This document shows positions 57,513-63,608 of a DNA stretch of 64,000 nt, in pieces. The stretch is from the NCBI GenBank assembly GCA_050250895.1, contig JBFWNU010000001.1, positions 3,076,891 to 3,140,890 on the forward strand. Direction: 5' to 3'. The translations under genes were made by a program, and so were the position numbers. Origin of the DNA: Vulcanimicrobiota bacterium. Its GTDB lineage: Bacteria > Vulcanimicrobiota > Xenobia > Xenobiales > JADMJV01. The notes under the pieces were generated by a model that saw nothing but the letters and a program-made list of their open reading frames with translations, did no database searches and was not told where the DNA came from. How positions within the stretch are numbered: position 1 is the stretch's first letter; every line of letters starts with the position of its first letter.

Positions 57513-59642
57513 ATGCCGAGGCTGTTCCTTCTTTTATTGATAGCGATTTCTTTCTTGCCGTGCGCCGCCGATGAGCGGATCGACAAGCTCCTGTCCGAGA
57601 TGACCTGGGCCGAGAAGCTGGGTCAACTGACTCAGTATGCGGGGTCATCTACCGGGCCGGTCCCCCTCAAAGCCGAGATGCAAGAGCGGGTCGGCCGGGG
57701 AGAAGTGGGCTCGGTGCTCAGCATCGCTGGCGTGGCCCGAGTGCGCCAGCTTCAGCAAGAGGCGGTCGAGAAGACCAGGCTGGGGATTCCCCTGGTGTTC
57801 GCCTACGACGTCATCCACGGTTACCGCACCGTCTTTCCCATCCCGTTGGCCGAGGCCGCCAGCTTCGACCCCGAGCTGGCCGAACAATCGGCTCGCATCG
57901 CCGCCCGTGAGGCCACTGCGGCCGGTATCGCCTGGAACTTTGCGCCCATGGTCGACATCGCCCGCGACCCGCGTTGGGGGCGCTGCATCGAAGGCTCGGG
58001 CGAAGACCCTTACCTCGGCTCGGTGATGGCGGCCGCCCGGGTGCGCGGTTTTCAGGGCAAAAACCTCAAGGCTGCCGACACCATGGCCGCCTGCGCCAAG
58101 CACTTCGCCGGCTACGGCGCGGCCGAGGGGGGCCGCGATTACGATGCGGCCGAGATTTCCGAGCGCACCCTCCGGCAGGTTTATCTGCCCCCCTTCCAGG
58201 CCGCCGTCGAGGCCGGAGCCATCACCATCATGGCTGGCTTCCAGGAGGTTTCGGGGGTGCCCGCTCACGCCAACCCCTTTCTGCTCGAGCAGGTGCTGCG
58301 CCAGGAGTGGGGCTTTGATGGTCTGGTGGTCAGCGATTACAACGCCATCCGCGAATTGATGGCCCACCGCATCGCGGCCACGCCCCATCAGGCCGGCGAA
58401 CTGGCTCTGCAGGCCGGAGTCGACATGGACATGATGGGCGACATTTATCGCGACCTGCCCGAAACGCCCGAAACGCGAGCCCTGGTGGACCGCTCGGTGC
58501 GCCGGGTGCTCGAACTCAAAGAGCGGCTGGGTCTGTTCGACGATCCTTATCGCTACCTCGATGAAGAGGCCGAGAAACGCTATATTCTGGCTCCCGAGCA
58601 TCGACAGGCAGCCAGGCGGGCCGCCCAGCGCTCGGCCGTGCTGCTCAAGAACGACGGTGGCGTTCTGCCCCTGGCCAAGCCCAGGAGGTTGGCCTTGCTG
58701 GGCAGTCTGGCCACCGACTCGACCAGCCTGCTGGGGGCCTGGAACACGGCCGGTAAGCCCGAAGAGACCACCAATTTATTGGAAGGTTTTCGCCAGGCTC
58801 TACCCGGCGCCGAGGTGGTGCATGCCGACGAGACCGATCTCGCCTCTGCTCTCGCGGCGGCCCGCGGGGCCGAGTCGGTGGTGCTGGTGCTGGGAGAGAT
58901 CGCGGACTGGTCGGGGGAATCGCGCAATCGCACCCGCCTCGGACTGCCCCCCGAACAGCTGGCCATGGCTCTCGAGGTGGCCAGGCTGGGCAAACCGACG
59001 GTGGTCTTATTGATGCACGGACGGCCCCTGGCCATTCCCGAGTTGGCCGACAAGCTGCCCGCTATCCTGGACATCTGGCATCCCGGCAGCATGGGAGCGG
59101 CGGCCGCCACCGACCTGGTCTTCGGTCAGGCCGCGCCAGGTGGCAAGCTGCCCATGACCTTTCCTCGAGCGGTGGGTCAGGTGCCCATCTACTACAATCA
59201 CAAGACTTCGGGACGGCCGGCTCAAGCGGGGGTCGAGCGCTACACCATCGATTATGTCGACGAGTCGCTCGAGCCGCTTTTTCCTTTCGGACATGGACTG
59301 AGTTATACCACCTTTGCCTATTCTGACCTCAGGCTCGAAGGCAAGCTGCCCCTGCGGGTGGCGGTCACGGTCAAGAACACCGGCCGTCGCGCCGGTGACG
59401 AGGTCGTGCAGGTTTACGTGCGCGACGAAGCGCGCAGCATCACCCCCCCCGAGCGCGAGTTGAAGGGCTTTCGGCGGGTAACCCTGGCTCCCGGCGAGGC
59501 CCGCCAGTTGACCTTTGACCTGGACCGGTCGGCCTTCTCGTTTATCGGCCAGGATCTCAAAGAGACCTTCGAACCGGGCCAGTTTACCATTTTCGTGGGA
59601 GGCGATTCACGGGCCACCCTGTCCGCCGAGGTGACCCTCTAA
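57513..59642 (+). CDS. bglX: glycoside hydrolase family 3 beta-glucosidase (BglX-like)
   Basis: DVIHG, RDPRWGR, KHFAGYG, VSDY, LLKN, FGHGLSYT. Confidence 0.9.
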   Translation: MPRLFLLLLIAISFLPCAADERIDKLLSEMTWAEKLGQLTQYAGSSTGPVPLKAEMQERVGRGEVGSVLSIAGVARVRQLQQEAVEKTRLGIPLVFAYDVIHGYRTVFPIPLAEAASFDPELAEQSARIAAREATAAGIAWNFAPMVDIARDPRWGRCIEGSGEDPYLGSVMAAARVRGFQGKNLKAADTMAACAKHFAGYGAAEGGRDYDAAEISERTLRQVYLPPFQAAVEAGAITIMAGFQEVSGVPAHANPFLLEQVLRQEWGFDGLVVSDYNAIRELMAHRIAATPHQAGELALQAGVDMDMMGDIYRDLPETPETRALVDRSVRRVLELKERLGLFDDPYRYLDEEAEKRYILAPEHRQAARRAAQRSAVLLKNDGGVLPLAKPRRLALLGSLATDSTSLLGAWNTAGKPEETTNLLEGFRQALPGAEVVHADETDLASALAAARGAESVVLVLGEIADWSGESRNRTRLGLPPEQLAMALEVARLGKPTVVLLMHGRPLAIPELADKLPAILDIWHPGSMGAAAATDLVFGQAAPGGKLPMTFPRAVGQVPIYYNHKTSGRPAQAGVERYTIDYVDESLEPLFPFGHGLSYTTFAYSDLRLEGKLPLRVAVTVKNTGRRAGDEVVQVYVRDEARSITPPERELKGFRRVTLAPGEARQLTFDLDRSAFSFIGQDLKETFEPGQFTIFVGGDSRATLSAEVTL

Positions 59643-60781
59643 CCGCGGAGAGGTTGGTCGGGCAGAATCCCGGCTCCCAGTTCGCTCTCGGCGCCGGGTT
59701 GGGCGATCGTTTGTTGCAATACCCGAGCAAGGGCCTCTTCGCGGGTCAAGGCGGGGTCGCGACGTAGCAGCTTGTCGAAGGCCCGCGAGCCCTGGGGGGC
59801 GGCATACGACGAGCCCGAATGGTGACCAGAGTGGCCGTCGACACAAAGGGGGCGGTCGACTGCGTCGGCGGCCAGCACTGCTCCCGCCATGGGTGAAGCC
59901 AGGGCCGCCGGGCCGTTGGCGTCGTCGGCAGCCCCCACCAGCACGGTCGTCTCGGTGGCCAGGTCGTTGCGGAAGAATTCCGGGGCGACTTCCAGGCCCA
60001 GCCCGGTAACGGTACGGTAGAGCTGTCCCTGATTGCCGGCCGACATCACACGAATGATGCCCAGTTCGTCGGCCCGGGCAGAGGCGGCTTCGAGTCGCTG
60101 ACGAGCAGCCGCCACCGAGGGATCGTGGGCGTGGACCGTGGCGACACGCTCGAGTAAGCCGGCCATCAGATCGTGGTCCGAGACGCCCGCGTCGAGGCCC
60201 AGTTGTTCGCTCAGACGCACCCGGAAAGCCGGCTCGTGGGTGCGGCCCCAGAGAGCCTCGACCACCCGCGACTCGGAGGCCCCCTGCGACTGGTTGATGA
60301 CCAGACGAAAGCCGCGCGCGGTTTGCTCTTGCAGGCCACGAGTGGTGTTGTCCATTCGGCCCGCGAAATGCTCGCGCACATAACCGTCGAGCGAGCCGGG
60401 AAGGCCCTGCTCGAGGGGCTGCATGGACTGGCCGATGCTCACCTGTTGGCGGGCTGAGGTGGGCACCACTTCGCACACCGAGCCCCGGCCGGTCAGCTCT
60501 TTTTCGACCAGTTCGCCGTGGGTAGTACCGCTGTCGGCGTTGGTGAAATCGTCGAACACCACCAGGCCGGCATAGCTCGGCTGGGGGGGAGGGCTGGCGC
60601 AGCAACCGGCCAGGCCGGCCGCGGCGGCGCCTAGCGCGAGCACGACGGCCCAACGCGACCCATGGGCTGAACTGCCCTCGAAGCTCTCGCGCGGACCCGG
60701 AAGGTCGGCCGGCTGGGGGTTAGACTGCTGTTTGGCGTGAGGTGGCACCAGGCGGTGGTCGGTCCGCCCGCGGATGTTCAC
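59639..60781 (-). CDS. S8 subtilase-like serine peptidase
   Basis: Asp (FDD), His (THG), oxyanion SAGN, Ser (SGSSYAAP). Confidence 0.7.
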   Translation of the reverse strand: MNIRGRTDHRLVPPHAKQQSNPQPADLPGPRESFEGSSAHGSRWAVVLALGAAAAGLAGCCASPPPQPSYAGLVVFDDFTNADSGTTHGELVEKELTGRGSVCEVVPTSARQQVSIGQSMQPLEQGLPGSLDGYVREHFAGRMDNTTRGLQEQTARGFRLVINQSQGASESRVVEALWGRTHEPAFRVRLSEQLGLDAGVSDHDLMAGLLERVATVHAHDPSVAAARQRLEAASARADELGIIRVMSAGNQGQLYRTVTGLGLEVAPEFFRNDLATETTVLVGAADDANGPAALASPMAGAVLAADAVDRPLCVDGHSGHHSGSSYAAPQGSRAFDKLLRRDPALTREEALARVLQQTIAQPGAESELGAGILPDQPLRG

Positions 60782-60809
60782 CCCCTGACTCTAGGCCGGA
60801 ACTCTGAAA

Positions 60810-62123
60810 CTAGTCTGAATCTCGCAGCCGGGCTCGAACGGCCAGCACCACCACCAGCAGCGGCAATCCCAGCAACACCACGAAGCTCATGACGATGTGC
60901 AGGACCTGACCGGCCGAGAGGGCATAGCCAGCTCGGACCACGTTGCGCCAGGCCCAGGCGGCCCCGCCCAGACAGAGCAACAGCGTCCCGATTTGAGCCG
61001 GGGTCGGCCGTTCGACCGAGAAGTGAAACTGACGCACTTTCTGCGTGAGCCTGGTCAAACGACGGCCGGCGGCCTCGAACAGCCAGCCGGGCCGGCGCCA
61101 CTCGAGCAGCCCCAACCCGACCGGGATGGCCGCCCCCAGGGGAGCGGTCAGCTTGACGAAGGTGGTCAAAGCGAAGCTCACCACCGCCAGCGGCAATCCC
61201 AGCAAAGCGGCCGGCTGCTCGAGCACGCTCTGATAGCAATGGATCGCCCAGGAAAGGGCCACCGCCGAAGCCACGAGGCCAAGCCAGCCCAGAGCTCTGG
61301 CGAGCCATCCAGGGGGAGGATTGGCGCTCACCACCACCTGGGCGATGGCCGTGCCCATGGCCAGGGCCCAGACCAGCTCTGAGCCCGACACCAAACCCGC
61401 CAGGGCCAGCCCTACCACCAGGGGGAGCCAGCCGCGTCCCAGTCCGATGAGCAGTCCCGCCACCCCGACCACCAGCAGGCCCTGGGCCAGCACGCGGTTG
61501 AGCGGCCAGGGCCGTCCCGAACCGCCGAAGAAGGCGATGGCCCGGCCTAGCAAATAGGGATCGAGGGTCTCGCCCGAGTGGTCGCAATAGGGTGAGAGCA
61601 CGACCGGGCCGGCTTGCTGGAGTTCGTTTAAAGAGTGGACCTGATCCCAGGCTCCCGCCCCCGCCAGGAAGTTCTCGGTGCCGGGCTCGACCGGAAAGCC
61701 GAAGGCCACCACCTTGCCAAAACCAGGACGTTGAGCCAGATTGAGCACGAGGTCCGCCCCCATGGAATGTCCTAGCAAGTGGCGGGGCGGCTCGAAGCTC
61801 AAGCCTATCTGCTCGAGCTGCTCGACATAGGTGTAGAAATCCTCGCCCGGGGCCAGATGCACGGCCACCCCGCGAAAGCCCCCCTCGGCCATGGCTCGGG
61901 CCGCCGGCAGGGCCGTGTCTCTGCCTTGAAAGACGGAATGGACGCACAGAATCGTCCCCCGAGGCGGACCGGCCGGCTCGAAGACCGTGACCGGAACCCC
62001 GGCCAGGCTGGCCTCGTGCCCGGCCGGACCGGGCCGCAGCAGGCCGGCCAGGCCAAGCAAGATCAGCAGGCCGAACCCAAGATGCTGCCAGCGCATAAAA
62101 AAAAATTGCTCGTCAGTGAACAT
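60810..62123 (-). CDS. alpha/beta hydrolase domain fused to a multi-TM membrane domain
   Basis: GHSMG nucleophile elbow; many C-terminal TMs; start 62123 or about 62096. Confidence 0.7.
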   Translation of the reverse strand: MFTDEQFFFMRWQHLGFGLLILLGLAGLLRPGPAGHEASLAGVPVTVFEPAGPPRGTILCVHSVFQGRDTALPAARAMAEGGFRGVAVHLAPGEDFYTYVEQLEQIGLSFEPPRHLLGHSMGADLVLNLAQRPGFGKVVAFGFPVEPGTENFLAGAGAWDQVHSLNELQQAGPVVLSPYCDHSGETLDPYLLGRAIAFFGGSGRPWPLNRVLAQGLLVVGVAGLLIGLGRGWLPLVVGLALAGLVSGSELVWALAMGTAIAQVVVSANPPPGWLARALGWLGLVASAVALSWAIHCYQSVLEQPAALLGLPLAVVSFALTTFVKLTAPLGAAIPVGLGLLEWRRPGWLFEAAGRRLTRLTQKVRQFHFSVERPTPAQIGTLLLCLGGAAWAWRNVVRAGYALSAGQVLHIVMSFVVLLGLPLLVVVLAVRARLRDSD

Positions 62124-62164
62124 TTTGCCTGCCTGAGTGGTCTATAATCTGGAGGCCGAGCACG

Positions 62165-62446
62165 ATGACCAACGAGACATATCAGCAGCTTCAACTTCTA
62201 GCTGACCAGGTGGTGGTTGGTCTCGACCAGACCTTCAGAATGCCCGGGCGCCGCAAGCGCCCCCTGGGCCTCGCTGTGCTGGCCCGGCTCGCCGTGGACC
62301 ACGACCTGGCCGCTTCACCTTCGGAACTCGAGCAAGCCCTCGACCGGGCCGCGCGCCGTCGCCATCGTCCCCATACTCGCTTGCTGGCCTGGGTTAGCCG
62401 GGCGGCGGCTGCCCTCTCGTTGTCTTTCTGGGCGCTCAGTCGCTAA
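62165..62446 (+). CDS. hypothetical protein
   Basis: GGAGG SD; ends just before the terminator hairpin. Confidence 0.55.
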   Translation: MTNETYQQLQLLADQVVVGLDQTFRMPGRRKRPLGLAVLARLAVDHDLAASPSELEQALDRAARRRHRPHTRLLAWVSRAAAALSLSFWALSR

Positions 62447-62479
62447 TAAGGAAAGAGGCACCCAGCTTGGGGTGCCTCT
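62445..62479 (-). terminator. intrinsic terminator closing the putative ncRNA (possibly bidirectional)
   Basis: 10-bp stem agaggcaccc/gggtgcctct followed by TTCCTTATT on the minus strand. Confidence 0.7.
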
Positions 62480-63575
62480 CGTTCCCGGCCGCCTCCACTC
62501 CAGCACCGGGATCCCGATATCGCTTGCGCGTCGGGCCACGTCCCTCTTTTATCGCAGTAGAGACTCTGCGGTCTACTTCTTTTGGCGTTGTGGACGCCGC
62601 GGCATCTCAGTAGTTCCGCTGCTTGGCCGCCATCCTCTCCTGCACCAAGCTCCCGTGGTCCGCCTTGCCGGCATCGCTGAGTTGCCTCATCGACCTTTCC
62701 CCTCGCGGGTCCGGCAAGTGCGTCGGGCCTCGCTTCGAATGTCCTCAGACGAAGCGCTGCGCATTGCTCAGGTGTGTATGCTACCCCTGTCATCTTTTGG
62801 CTGTCGCCGCGGCCTTTTGACAGTTCCGCTCTCGCCTTTCGACGCTCTCGCGCCCGGTGCGAGCTTCCAACCCTCGAGTTCCGCGCTCGTCGGTGTGATC
62901 GATGCCTCGATCCCGTTTGTCCAGTCGGCTCTGGGCGCTCTCAGGTCTGAACGCAACCCCTGCTCCTATATGCGGCTGAGCAGTTCCGTCCCTGGCCGCC
63001 ATCCACTCCTGCACCAGGATCCCCGTGTTCCGCCTTACCCGGCTGCGCTTCGAGGTTTCGTTGCGCTCTTTCTCCTCGCGGTTCCGACTGTTGGCTTTGG
63101 GGCCTCGTCCCGACACCTGATCGGGACTTCGTACACTCTTAGGGTGGGTGTTCCCCTGTTCTCTTTCGGCGCTTAGCTTCGCCACGGCGTTCGAACAGTT
63201 CCGCTGCCTTTGGGTTAACCCGTCAGGCTGCATCTGGTCACCGATACATCTCGACTGCCGGTCGAGTCGGGCGTTCTAGGTCTGAACGCAACCCCGCTCA
63301 GCATTTGACGTCGCGGAACGTCACGGCGTCTGAGCGATCCGTTGCCTGGCTTTCGCACCAAGCTCACCAACACACTAACCTCGGCGCAGCTCAAAGTTAC
63401 CTTTGCGCGTCTTTATCCTCGCGGCTCCGAGAGAGATGTTGGTCTTGCCTCGCATGTCCACCCGAGGCGGTGGAGGCACCTGGTCTGTGCCCTGCCCTGA
63501 CATTTGCTCTTTCCGAGCGGGTTGCCAGCCCCTCCGAGTCTCACGCTCCTCGGGGCGGCTCCGTGACCGGAACAT
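62450..63575 (-). ncRNA. putative large (about 1.1 kb) structured non-coding RNA with internal tandem modules, family not recognised
   Basis: Consensus promoter and terminator boundaries; many GNRA hairpins on the minus strand; repeated modules with compensatory pairing; no credible ORF. Confidence 0.65.
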
Positions 63576-63580
63576 TAATT

Positions 63581-63608
63581 ATTATACCCACGATGACGTT
63601 CCTGTCAA
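63581..63608 (-). promoter_or_regulatory. perfect-consensus sigma70 promoter
   Basis: Minus strand TTGACA (63608-63603), N16, TATAAT (63586-63581) in a GC-rich genome. Confidence 0.85.

Follow-up and report, generated by a model that had tools for sequence, protein, structure and literature searches.

The minus strand of positions 63574-62445 in a 64,000-nucleotide stretch of Vulcanimicrobiota bacterium DNA (assembly GCA_050250895.1, contig JBFWNU010000001.1, positions 3,076,891 to 3,140,890), referred to below as the window, is almost certainly a ~1.13-kb gene for a non-coding structured RNA, which has its own consensus sigma-70 promoter and terminator, is one of six paralogues, and belongs to a non-Rfam family found only in three families of one class (Candidatus Xenobia, Vulcanimicrobiota/Eremiobacterota). 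The RNA is a tandem array of six copies of one complex module, not one monolithic fold: two hairpins at the 5′ end are followed by six head-to-tail, collinear copies of a module of ~110-180 nucleotides (nt), as located by a search with a covariance model, R1. An initial annotation, made from the letters alone, had proposed a standalone structured non-coding RNA here, and this proposal is supported by the promoter and terminator, by the lack of any Rfam match, and by contigs from RNA libraries that cover the gene.

Boundaries and non-coding character of the gene

The elements that delimit the gene are as follows.

63608-63581, minus strand: sigma-70-type promoter, with a −35 box TTGACA at 63608-63603, a 16-nt spacer, and a −10 box TATAAT at 63586-63581
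63574-62445, minus strand: predicted transcript of ~1,130 nt, its inferred start lying ~7 nt past the −10 box and its inferred end after the terminator tail
63573-63558, minus strand: 5′-terminal hairpin of 5 bp with the loop GGUCAC, alignment columns 2-6 pairing with 13-17
63557-63529, minus strand: second 5′ hairpin (GCCCCGAG...CUCGGAGGGGC), its four inner pairs canonical in 14-15 of 15 sequences
62480-62445, minus strand: intrinsic terminator, an 11-bp stem at 62480-62453 with a T-rich tail

The perfect TTGACA-N16-TATAAT reported in the initial annotation is present on the minus strand, with 12 of 12 matches, and is the single match in the window when up to one mismatch is allowed (no match of any kind in 100 shuffled sequences); in a promoter scan it was also the sole sigma-70-like site in 61500-64000, shuffled sequences having 0.2 ± 0.4 sites. 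The terminator stem contains 11 pairs, 7 of them G-C, with a 6-nt loop, and is followed by the moderately U-rich tail TCCTTATTAG. It should be noted that terminator-like sites alone are not above chance in the region (2 found versus 2.3 ± 1.4 expected); the terminator is supported because all six paralogues end at the homologous place in a hairpin and T-rich tail. The earlier description of this element as a 10-bp hairpin at 62479-62445 was essentially right. Homology among the 15 homologues aligned begins 1-2 nt from the inferred start and stops at the terminator. Both 5′ hairpins vary in a way that preserves pairing: in the terminal hairpin, 2 sequences have G-C as the outer pair and 11 have A-U, with each pair canonical in 13-15 of the 15, and the inner pairs of the second hairpin exchange G-C, A-U, C-G, and U-A.

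The open reading frames that overlap the gene had been regarded as shadows, and comparison of the paralogues confirms this. The three codon phases have similar numbers of mismatches (69/71/64, 42/44/50, and 81/66/76), indels are mostly of 1 nt, and the longest open frames of the six copies differ in strand, frame, and position, none being common to the paralogues. A protein-coding gene was rejected on these grounds: there is no third-position substitution bias, 1-nt indels dominate, and no frame is conserved.

The Rfam scan recommended in the initial annotation was run with Rfam 15 (4,227 models) and gave no match at gathering score in the window, in 62300-63750, or at 14 homologous loci. The models of this release include RNase P, tmRNA, 6S, SRP, and group I and II introns, together with OLE, GOLLD, ROOL, raiA, HEARO, riboswitches, and ribozymes. 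With permissive filters, 62300-63750 gave six matches only (E 1.8-9.9; the best 20.3 bits versus a gathering score of 80), and these, to mir-346, F6, HIV-1 SL4, and others, were rejected as chance-level and far below gathering. ARAGORN found no tRNA or tmRNA gene in 62300-63750. The earlier statement that the RNA belongs to no known family is thus confirmed for Rfam 15 and, with ARAGORN, for tRNA and tmRNA. The hairpins with GNRA loops that were listed at the outset are all in the sequence (CCGCGAGG three times, and aaGGTAACtt, gaGGCAACtc, cgCGCAAGcg, and gtcGAAAggc).

Two observations concern the immediate margins of the gene. Directly upstream of the −35 box, 63618-63702 contains a G+C-rich inverted repeat (GGCAGCCCC...GGGGCTGCC) and a second small hairpin, the sole match of which is the chance-level one to mir-346 (20.3 bits versus 80); this element may terminate or insulate transcription arriving from the next upstream gene. 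At the other margin, the end of a 93-aa open frame on the plus strand (62165-62446) coincides exactly with the terminator hairpin of the RNA, and the hairpin could therefore serve both directions.

Module fold, covariation, and RNA-library cover

The core of the module, ~180 nt, was found through internal repeats and the best-conserved stretch of the RNA, and was aligned from 20 sequences with MAFFT only. RNAalifold predicted 34 pairs from this alignment, in which 97.2% of cells are paired versus 29-47% when the partners are slid, and double changes occur at 13 pairs versus 4.6 ± 1.4 in shuffles (0 of 500 reaching the observed value). The covariance model R1 was built from the module, and 90 modules of 33 loci were aligned to it. 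Among these, double changes are seen in all 34 pairs, 93.5% of cells are paired versus 27-43% when slid, and the covariation score is 0.508 versus 0.18 in shuffles (0 of 500), figures that lean towards structure because the alignment was fitted to the model. The consensus fold of the whole RNA from 15 homologues contains 254 pairs, 136 of which have a compensatory change. The modules of the window RNA, scored with R1 in a 1.25-kb search, are listed below.

63504-63339, minus strand: module 1, full-type and diverged (38.2 bits, E 1.9e-11)
63305-63201, minus strand: module 2, short, degenerate, and the weakest, keeping the GGGGUUGCG..CAGACC hairpin (8.3 bits, E 0.006)
63165-62985, minus strand: module 3, full-type (70.2 bits, E 1.5e-20)
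62969-62854, minus strand: module 4, short type (28.3 bits, E 1.2e-08)
62796-62616, minus strand: module 5, canonical and best conserved (174.8 bits, E 2.7e-50)
62588-62478, minus strand: module 6, which has no P1 and runs into the terminator (49.0 bits, E 1.6e-14)

Modules 1, 3, and 5 are full and modules 2, 4, and 6 are shortened; module 2 shares an exact 18-nt repeat with module 4, the sequence of which is conserved in all 15 full-length homologues. A full module opens with CAGGGGUAGC, followed by a hairpin whose loop, CAnACCnnAG, pairs back to the GG directly upstream to form a pseudoknot; next come another hairpin and a junction, closed by a long-range helix and carrying one arm with a GNRA cap and one variable arm, and the module ends in a last hairpin. 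In module 5, the P1 hairpin is formed by 62781-62778 with 62764-62761, and the pseudoknot by loop residues C25 and C26 (62772 and 62771) with G12 and G11 (62785 and 62786); a P2 hairpin, a junction with a GCGA-capped arm, and a P4 hairpin make up its further parts. The 5′ element CAGGGGUAGC-N3-CAnACCnnAG, GGCC, and GGAG are common to all 90 modules. For the pseudoknot pair, 75 modules have G-C, 10 have A-U, and 2 have A-C, whereas 88 have G-C at the adjacent pair; since every A-U case belongs to a single genus, the number of independent events behind them may be small. Inside the junction, 63 of 87 modules have a hairpin of at least 3 bp with a GNRA cap, compared with 7.2 ± 2.7 in shuffles, and the variable arm is not the same from module to module. 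Successive modules are connected by short purine-rich linkers (..GCGGAACUG..), and the linker word CGGAAC, of which the window RNA has 7 copies, is 10-40-fold above the genome background; the RNA strand as a whole is 60% purine and 13% U. In two of the window modules (62640-62600 and 63010-62970, minus strand), the P4 loop reads AGGAG(A/U)GGAUGG, a box resembling a Shine-Dalgarno sequence with an AUG that opens a frame of 8-12 codons. This AUG is taken as fortuitous because the other paralogues do not have it.

Modules within one array are 43-77% alike, with a median of 58%, and the nearest relative of a module lies in another genome in 66 of 90 cases, at another locus of the same genome in 20, and in its own array in only 4. 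Because the nearest relatives lie outside the array and the within-array similarity is low, the arrays are judged to be old, with each position kept by selection and no recent expansion or homogenization. A tandem DNA satellite or mobile repeat was rejected, the units being diverged and positionally orthologous and compensatory changes being found in 34 of 34 pairs.

Part of the stretch occurs in 16 public sequencing runs from six studies (best word share 0.22), and the contigs of four of these were aligned. A 988-nt contig from a run filed as a wastewater metatranscriptome, with a depth of 888.5, lies wholly on 62471-63456 with 47 differing letters and 5 gaps. Positions 62493-63557 are matched by a 1,066-nt contig of another run, which is only guessed to be of RNA; pieces of 677, 557, 289, and 162 nt within 62493-63560 come from two more metatranscriptome runs, and RNA-library cover includes a contig on 63273-63560. 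The contigs are ~95% identical to the gene and come from relatives, and a product of RNA libraries thus exists in one piece across all six modules. In two studies, contigs end at nearly coinciding positions (62493; 63557 and 63560), a hint of transcript ends that is weak at best. Apart from ~20-nt pieces of long unrelated contigs, nothing covers 60001-62412 or 63619-64000 on either side, and this lack of cover is not taken as evidence. The initial annotation had described the RNA as highly expressed; this is borne out only in part, since the cover comes from assembled contigs of ~95%-identical relatives, which cannot give strand, ends, or level.

Paralogues, neighboring genes, and distribution

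The source genome (9.5 Mb, 63% G+C, 17 contigs) contains the window gene and five further copies, detected by BLAST and nhmmer. The six paralogues, of 1,081-1,158 nt, are collinear from a conserved 5′ end to the hairpin and T-rich tail. Each of the other five has TTGAC(A/G)-N16/17-TAnnnT at the same distance from the conserved 5′ end, and the paralogue promoters are so placed that conservation starts 1-2 nt from the expected start. Four paralogues are mutually close (82-97% identity), and the window copy and one other are more distant.

No neighboring gene is common to the six loci, as judged by a Pfam search of 20 flanking proteins. The flanks include an S8-like peptidase with an unknown membrane protein, an esterase, GGDEF proteins, a mechanosensitive channel, a menaquinone-biosynthesis protein, an S1/P1 nuclease, a WD40 protein, a Ser/Thr kinase, rplJ-rplL, and thioredoxin; the presence of GGDEF proteins near 2 of the 6 loci is taken as chance. 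When 563 flanking open reading frames from 45 loci in 14 genomes were clustered, the only widely recurrent family was the response-regulator receiver domain, a very common one, found at 11 loci in 8 genomes, and the other recurrent clusters reflect synteny of one orthologous locus within one genus. A riboswitch or other cis-regulatory leader was rejected, since the gene has its own terminator, the downstream genes differ at 6 of 6 loci, and no specific neighbor recurs at the 45 loci.

Some individual loci may be described. Downstream of the window gene and on the same strand, 59639-62123 (minus) encodes a 437-aa protein that has no Pfam family and looks membrane-bound by sequence, and a 380-aa protein with a weak match to subtilase (S8; E 1.7e-5); in three genomes of another genus, the arrays of one syntenic locus likewise have an S8 peptidase 191-621 nt upstream. 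On contig C2 (138086-144238), two paralogues that are 96-97% alike lie 5 kb apart on the same strand, separated by a WD40-repeat protein, a protein weakly similar to YhgA-like transposases, and an unknown 498-aa protein; the pair looks like a recent segmental duplication. The paralogue on contig C1 (112077-116007) is located ~1.8 kb downstream of rplJ-rplL, where many bacteria have rpoB, and is followed by thioredoxin and a GGDEF protein. At one orthologous locus in four genomes of another genus, the array is at most ~330 nt from, and divergent to, a gene with flagellar export domains of the FlhA/FlhB type.

The collection of homologues in related genomes, also recommended at the outset, gave BLAST matches in 11 of 41 genomes, all of the same family; nhmmer found full-length homologues of 1.0-1.5 kb there, and an alignment of 15 sequences is collinear throughout. 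Among nine full-length homologues in relatives, the TTGACA promoter motif begins 37-42 nt before the start of homology in seven, another being at a locus that has no upstream sequence, and a T-run is present at the end of homology in five. In the order, R1 detected modules in 20 of 40 genomes, comprising 14 of 15 in one family (f1), 5 of 5 in a second (f2), and none of 19 in a third, of small genomes (f3); the f1 genome with no match is 75% complete. In a sample of the phylum, modules were present in 21 of 151 genomes, which belong to f1, f2, and, in one case, a further family of the same class (f5), and none was found in 129 genomes of 18 other families of the phylum. The R1 searches covered this phylum, and a scan of all prokaryotes, with one genome per species, used one strict pattern; it returned 14 stretches, titled Candidatus Xenobia or Vulcanimicrobiota save for a few that are generic or probably mislabelled. 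Some public records with this RNA are titled "uncultured Burkholderiales" or "Selenomonadaceae", which are probably wrong taxonomic labels. In other genera, the RNAs consist of 3-6 directly abutting modules with linkers of 10-13 nt.

A looser pattern was used with metagenomes, and modules are present in 60 of the 80 stretches among the matches listed. In that same set, arrays reach 12-13 modules per contig, some filling contigs of 3.0-3.5 kb end to end; the period is 143-394 nt (median 247.5 nt), and in 59 of the 60 all modules are on one strand. Four of the metagenome contigs listed, of 2.9-3.5 kb, are made of 10-13 modules end to end, and some members of the family must therefore be longer than 3.4 kb. 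The 80 stretches listed include no close orthologue of the window gene, the best having 70-76% identity over module 5, and are for this reason uninformative on its ends. Among eight stretches from a pattern scan of a viral collection, no R1 match was found at E ≤ 0.001 with default filters. In one of these, a 16-bit match obtained with filters off, and also with nhmmer, was rejected; it falls in an apparent coding sequence beside an opposite-strand start codon and is read as a chance match pre-selected by the pattern.

Possible functions and relationship to known RNAs

The reading that is tentatively favored, with a probability somewhat short of even, is that the RNA acts in trans as a multivalent platform or sponge. 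Each module would fold on its own and present the same conserved pseudoknot surface, so that one transcript could hold several copies of a partner (a protein, possibly a small ligand), which would be sequestered, concentrated, or assembled by this means. The logic would resemble that of sponge RNAs with repeated motifs, the unit being far larger and more elaborate. This reading is favored because there are several paralogues with strong promoters and terminators of their own, the number of repeats varies, and each module offers one conserved surface; several paralogues, variable repeat number, strong promoters, and own terminators are typical of RNAs of the CsrB/RsmZ/CrcZ type. The 5′ pseudoknot hairpin, with the GGCC and GGAG kept in all 90 modules, fits a repeated binding surface, and action in trans is in line with the finding that the six loci share no neighbor and the 45 loci have no specific recurrent one.

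Several observations weigh against a platform or sponge. No partner was identified, and a TROVE/Ro protein was not found in the source genome, which encodes Hfq once. CsrA was found in 6 of the 40 genomes of the order, and hence in only 6 of the 20 RNA-bearing ones. Nor are the modules interchangeable copies, given their within-array median of 58% and the rarity (4/90) of nearest relatives within the same array, and three of the six window modules are truncated. Conservation that is specific to position fits a fixed architecture at least as well as it fits a sponge, and the combination of covarying stems with junction and loop bases that hardly vary is met more typically in RNAs that bind ligands or act as catalysts than in simple protein sponges. 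Assembled contigs of relatives, moreover, give no strand, ends, level, or processing state.

It is possible, if on balance unlikely, that each module is an autonomous domain of aptamer or ribozyme grade, as the invariant junction and loop bases, covarying stems, and pseudoknot might suggest, with 3 to at least 13 such domains in an abundant transcript. Such an RNA would be a natural multi-domain RNA and a new functional class of bacterial RNA, which might serve to buffer or sense a small molecule or ion with high capacity, or as an RNA scaffold that assembles itself.

The main rival to the platform, itself rather doubtful, is an architecture made of RNA only, in which the tandem modules would pack, for example through conserved GNRA tetraloops, into one large quasi-symmetric particle that is the functional unit. 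ROOL, GOLLD, and OLE are usually single-copy and often linked to phages. The particle would correspond, in covalently linked form, to the homo-oligomeric complexes that these RNAs form according to one report (PMC12286853). The frequency of GNRA-capped junction hairpins (63 of 87 modules), the individual conservation of module positions across genomes in place of homogenization, and a similar size class and richness of structure (254 predicted pairs) fit this architecture, but neither a tetraloop receptor nor inter-module pairing was demonstrated, a module count that ranges from 3 to at least 13 is difficult to reconcile with a single closed shape, each genome has six paralogues, and no phage context was seen in the flanks of the source-genome loci or in the stretches from the viral collection.

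Alternatively, the array could be a polycistronic precursor that is cut at the conserved linkers into units of ~110-250 nt acting alone, like arrays of tRNAs or small RNAs. The short conserved linkers with their enriched CGGAAC, the self-contained fold of each module, and the difference in variable arm from one module to the next would suit such a scheme, which is nevertheless improbable: the truncated modules 2, 4, and 6 would yield odd products, no signal of a ribozyme or of the RNase P type was obtained in the Rfam scans, and the 988- and 1,066-nt contigs bridge all modules, although assemblies would also bridge a processed precursor.

Titration of CsrA by purine-rich loops bearing GGA, as in CsrB and RsmZ, is very improbable, and is disfavored because CsrA is found in so few of the RNA-bearing genomes; the 14 of 20 that have no CsrA match include genomes that are 94-97% complete. 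The source genome does encode one CsrA, the P4 loop is AGGAGAGG in many modules, and GGA is 1.5-2.6-fold over background in the six RNAs (19-34 versus 12.9 per kb), but this excess may be explained by the 60% purine content of the strand, and the GGA loop positions are not among the bases common to all 90 modules. Finally, the open frames of 116-319 aa and the direct repeats in the region might be taken to mean that this is not an RNA gene but a gene for a protein, a leader or antisense element that regulates a neighbor in cis, or repetitive DNA of the tandem or mobile kind, a view that retains scarcely any probability, as it is refuted by the coding tests (no codon periodicity or conserved frame), the neighbors (a terminator before the next gene and different genes at 6 of 6 loci), the massive compensatory changes, and the divergence of the repeats, which are only ~58% alike and positionally orthologous, and as 0 of 8 viral-collection stretches contain a convincing module.

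The Xenobia modular RNA is filed here as a new class of RNA. No description of it was found in the full-text literature, subscription journals and supplements, where one may exist, lying outside the search, and we know of no described bacterial RNA that is built as a tandem array of large modules of complex fold. Support for the family comes from the six paralogues and dozens of homologues, from strong covariation, and from the RNA-library contigs that cover the gene; the architecture is that of tandem arrays of a ~200-nt pseudoknotted multi-helix module, encoded by several paralogous genes per genome. Very few classes of large bacterial RNA with complex folds are known, and each has opened structural and functional work. 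Since the family is apparently confined to Candidatus Xenobia, which have large genomes and belong to a phylum almost devoid of cultured members, it may mark biology specific to this lineage. Both module 5 (~180 nt) and the full 1.1-kb RNA are tractable for chemical probing, ligand screens, and cryo-electron microscopy, and this does not require culture of the organism.

Among known systems, the large ornate RNAs OLE, GOLLD, and ROOL share with the Xenobia RNA a kilobase size, dense conserved structure with GNRA loops and pseudoknots, their own promoter and terminator, and abundance in environmental RNA data. The Xenobia RNA differs from them in that it matches no Rfam model, consists of tandem copies of one module as opposed to one non-repetitive fold, has six paralogues per genome and no phage or tRNA neighborhood, and is restricted to one class of Vulcanimicrobiota/Eremiobacterota. 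CsrB/CsrC, RsmX/Y/Z, and CrcZ are comparable in acting in trans, as the Xenobia RNA would, in having a strong promoter and a terminator of their own and several paralogues per genome, and in repeating one element along the RNA in numbers that vary between lineages. However, their repeat is a short hairpin or A-rich motif of ~10-20 nt, whereas that of the Xenobia RNA is a multi-helix pseudoknotted domain of 110-250 nt, with which CsrA is not co-distributed.

Tandem riboswitch aptamers, such as the glycine riboswitch, also place two or more copies of one complex, covarying domain with a conserved junction in series, but they sit in 5′ leaders that control a downstream gene, whereas each Xenobia array, with a unit number of 3 to at least 13, is closed by a terminator and has no conserved gene after it. 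The antitoxin arrays of ToxI and other type III systems are similar in being non-coding tandem arrays transcribed as one RNA. Type III antitoxin repeats are ~34-40 nt long and nearly identical, with the toxin gene directly after them; in contrast, the Xenobia arrays have a period of 143-394 nt among the matches listed, units that are ~58% alike, and no conserved adjacent gene. A type III toxin-antitoxin array was accordingly rejected, given the long period, the within-array median identity of 0.58, and the terminator and varied neighbors that follow. Eukaryotic long non-coding RNAs of the NORAD type resemble the platform or sponge envisaged here in being long RNAs of diverged repeat units, each a binding platform, that form a multivalent sink; their units are short protein-binding motifs, compared with a covarying tertiary fold in the Xenobia RNA, and the likeness is an analogy only.

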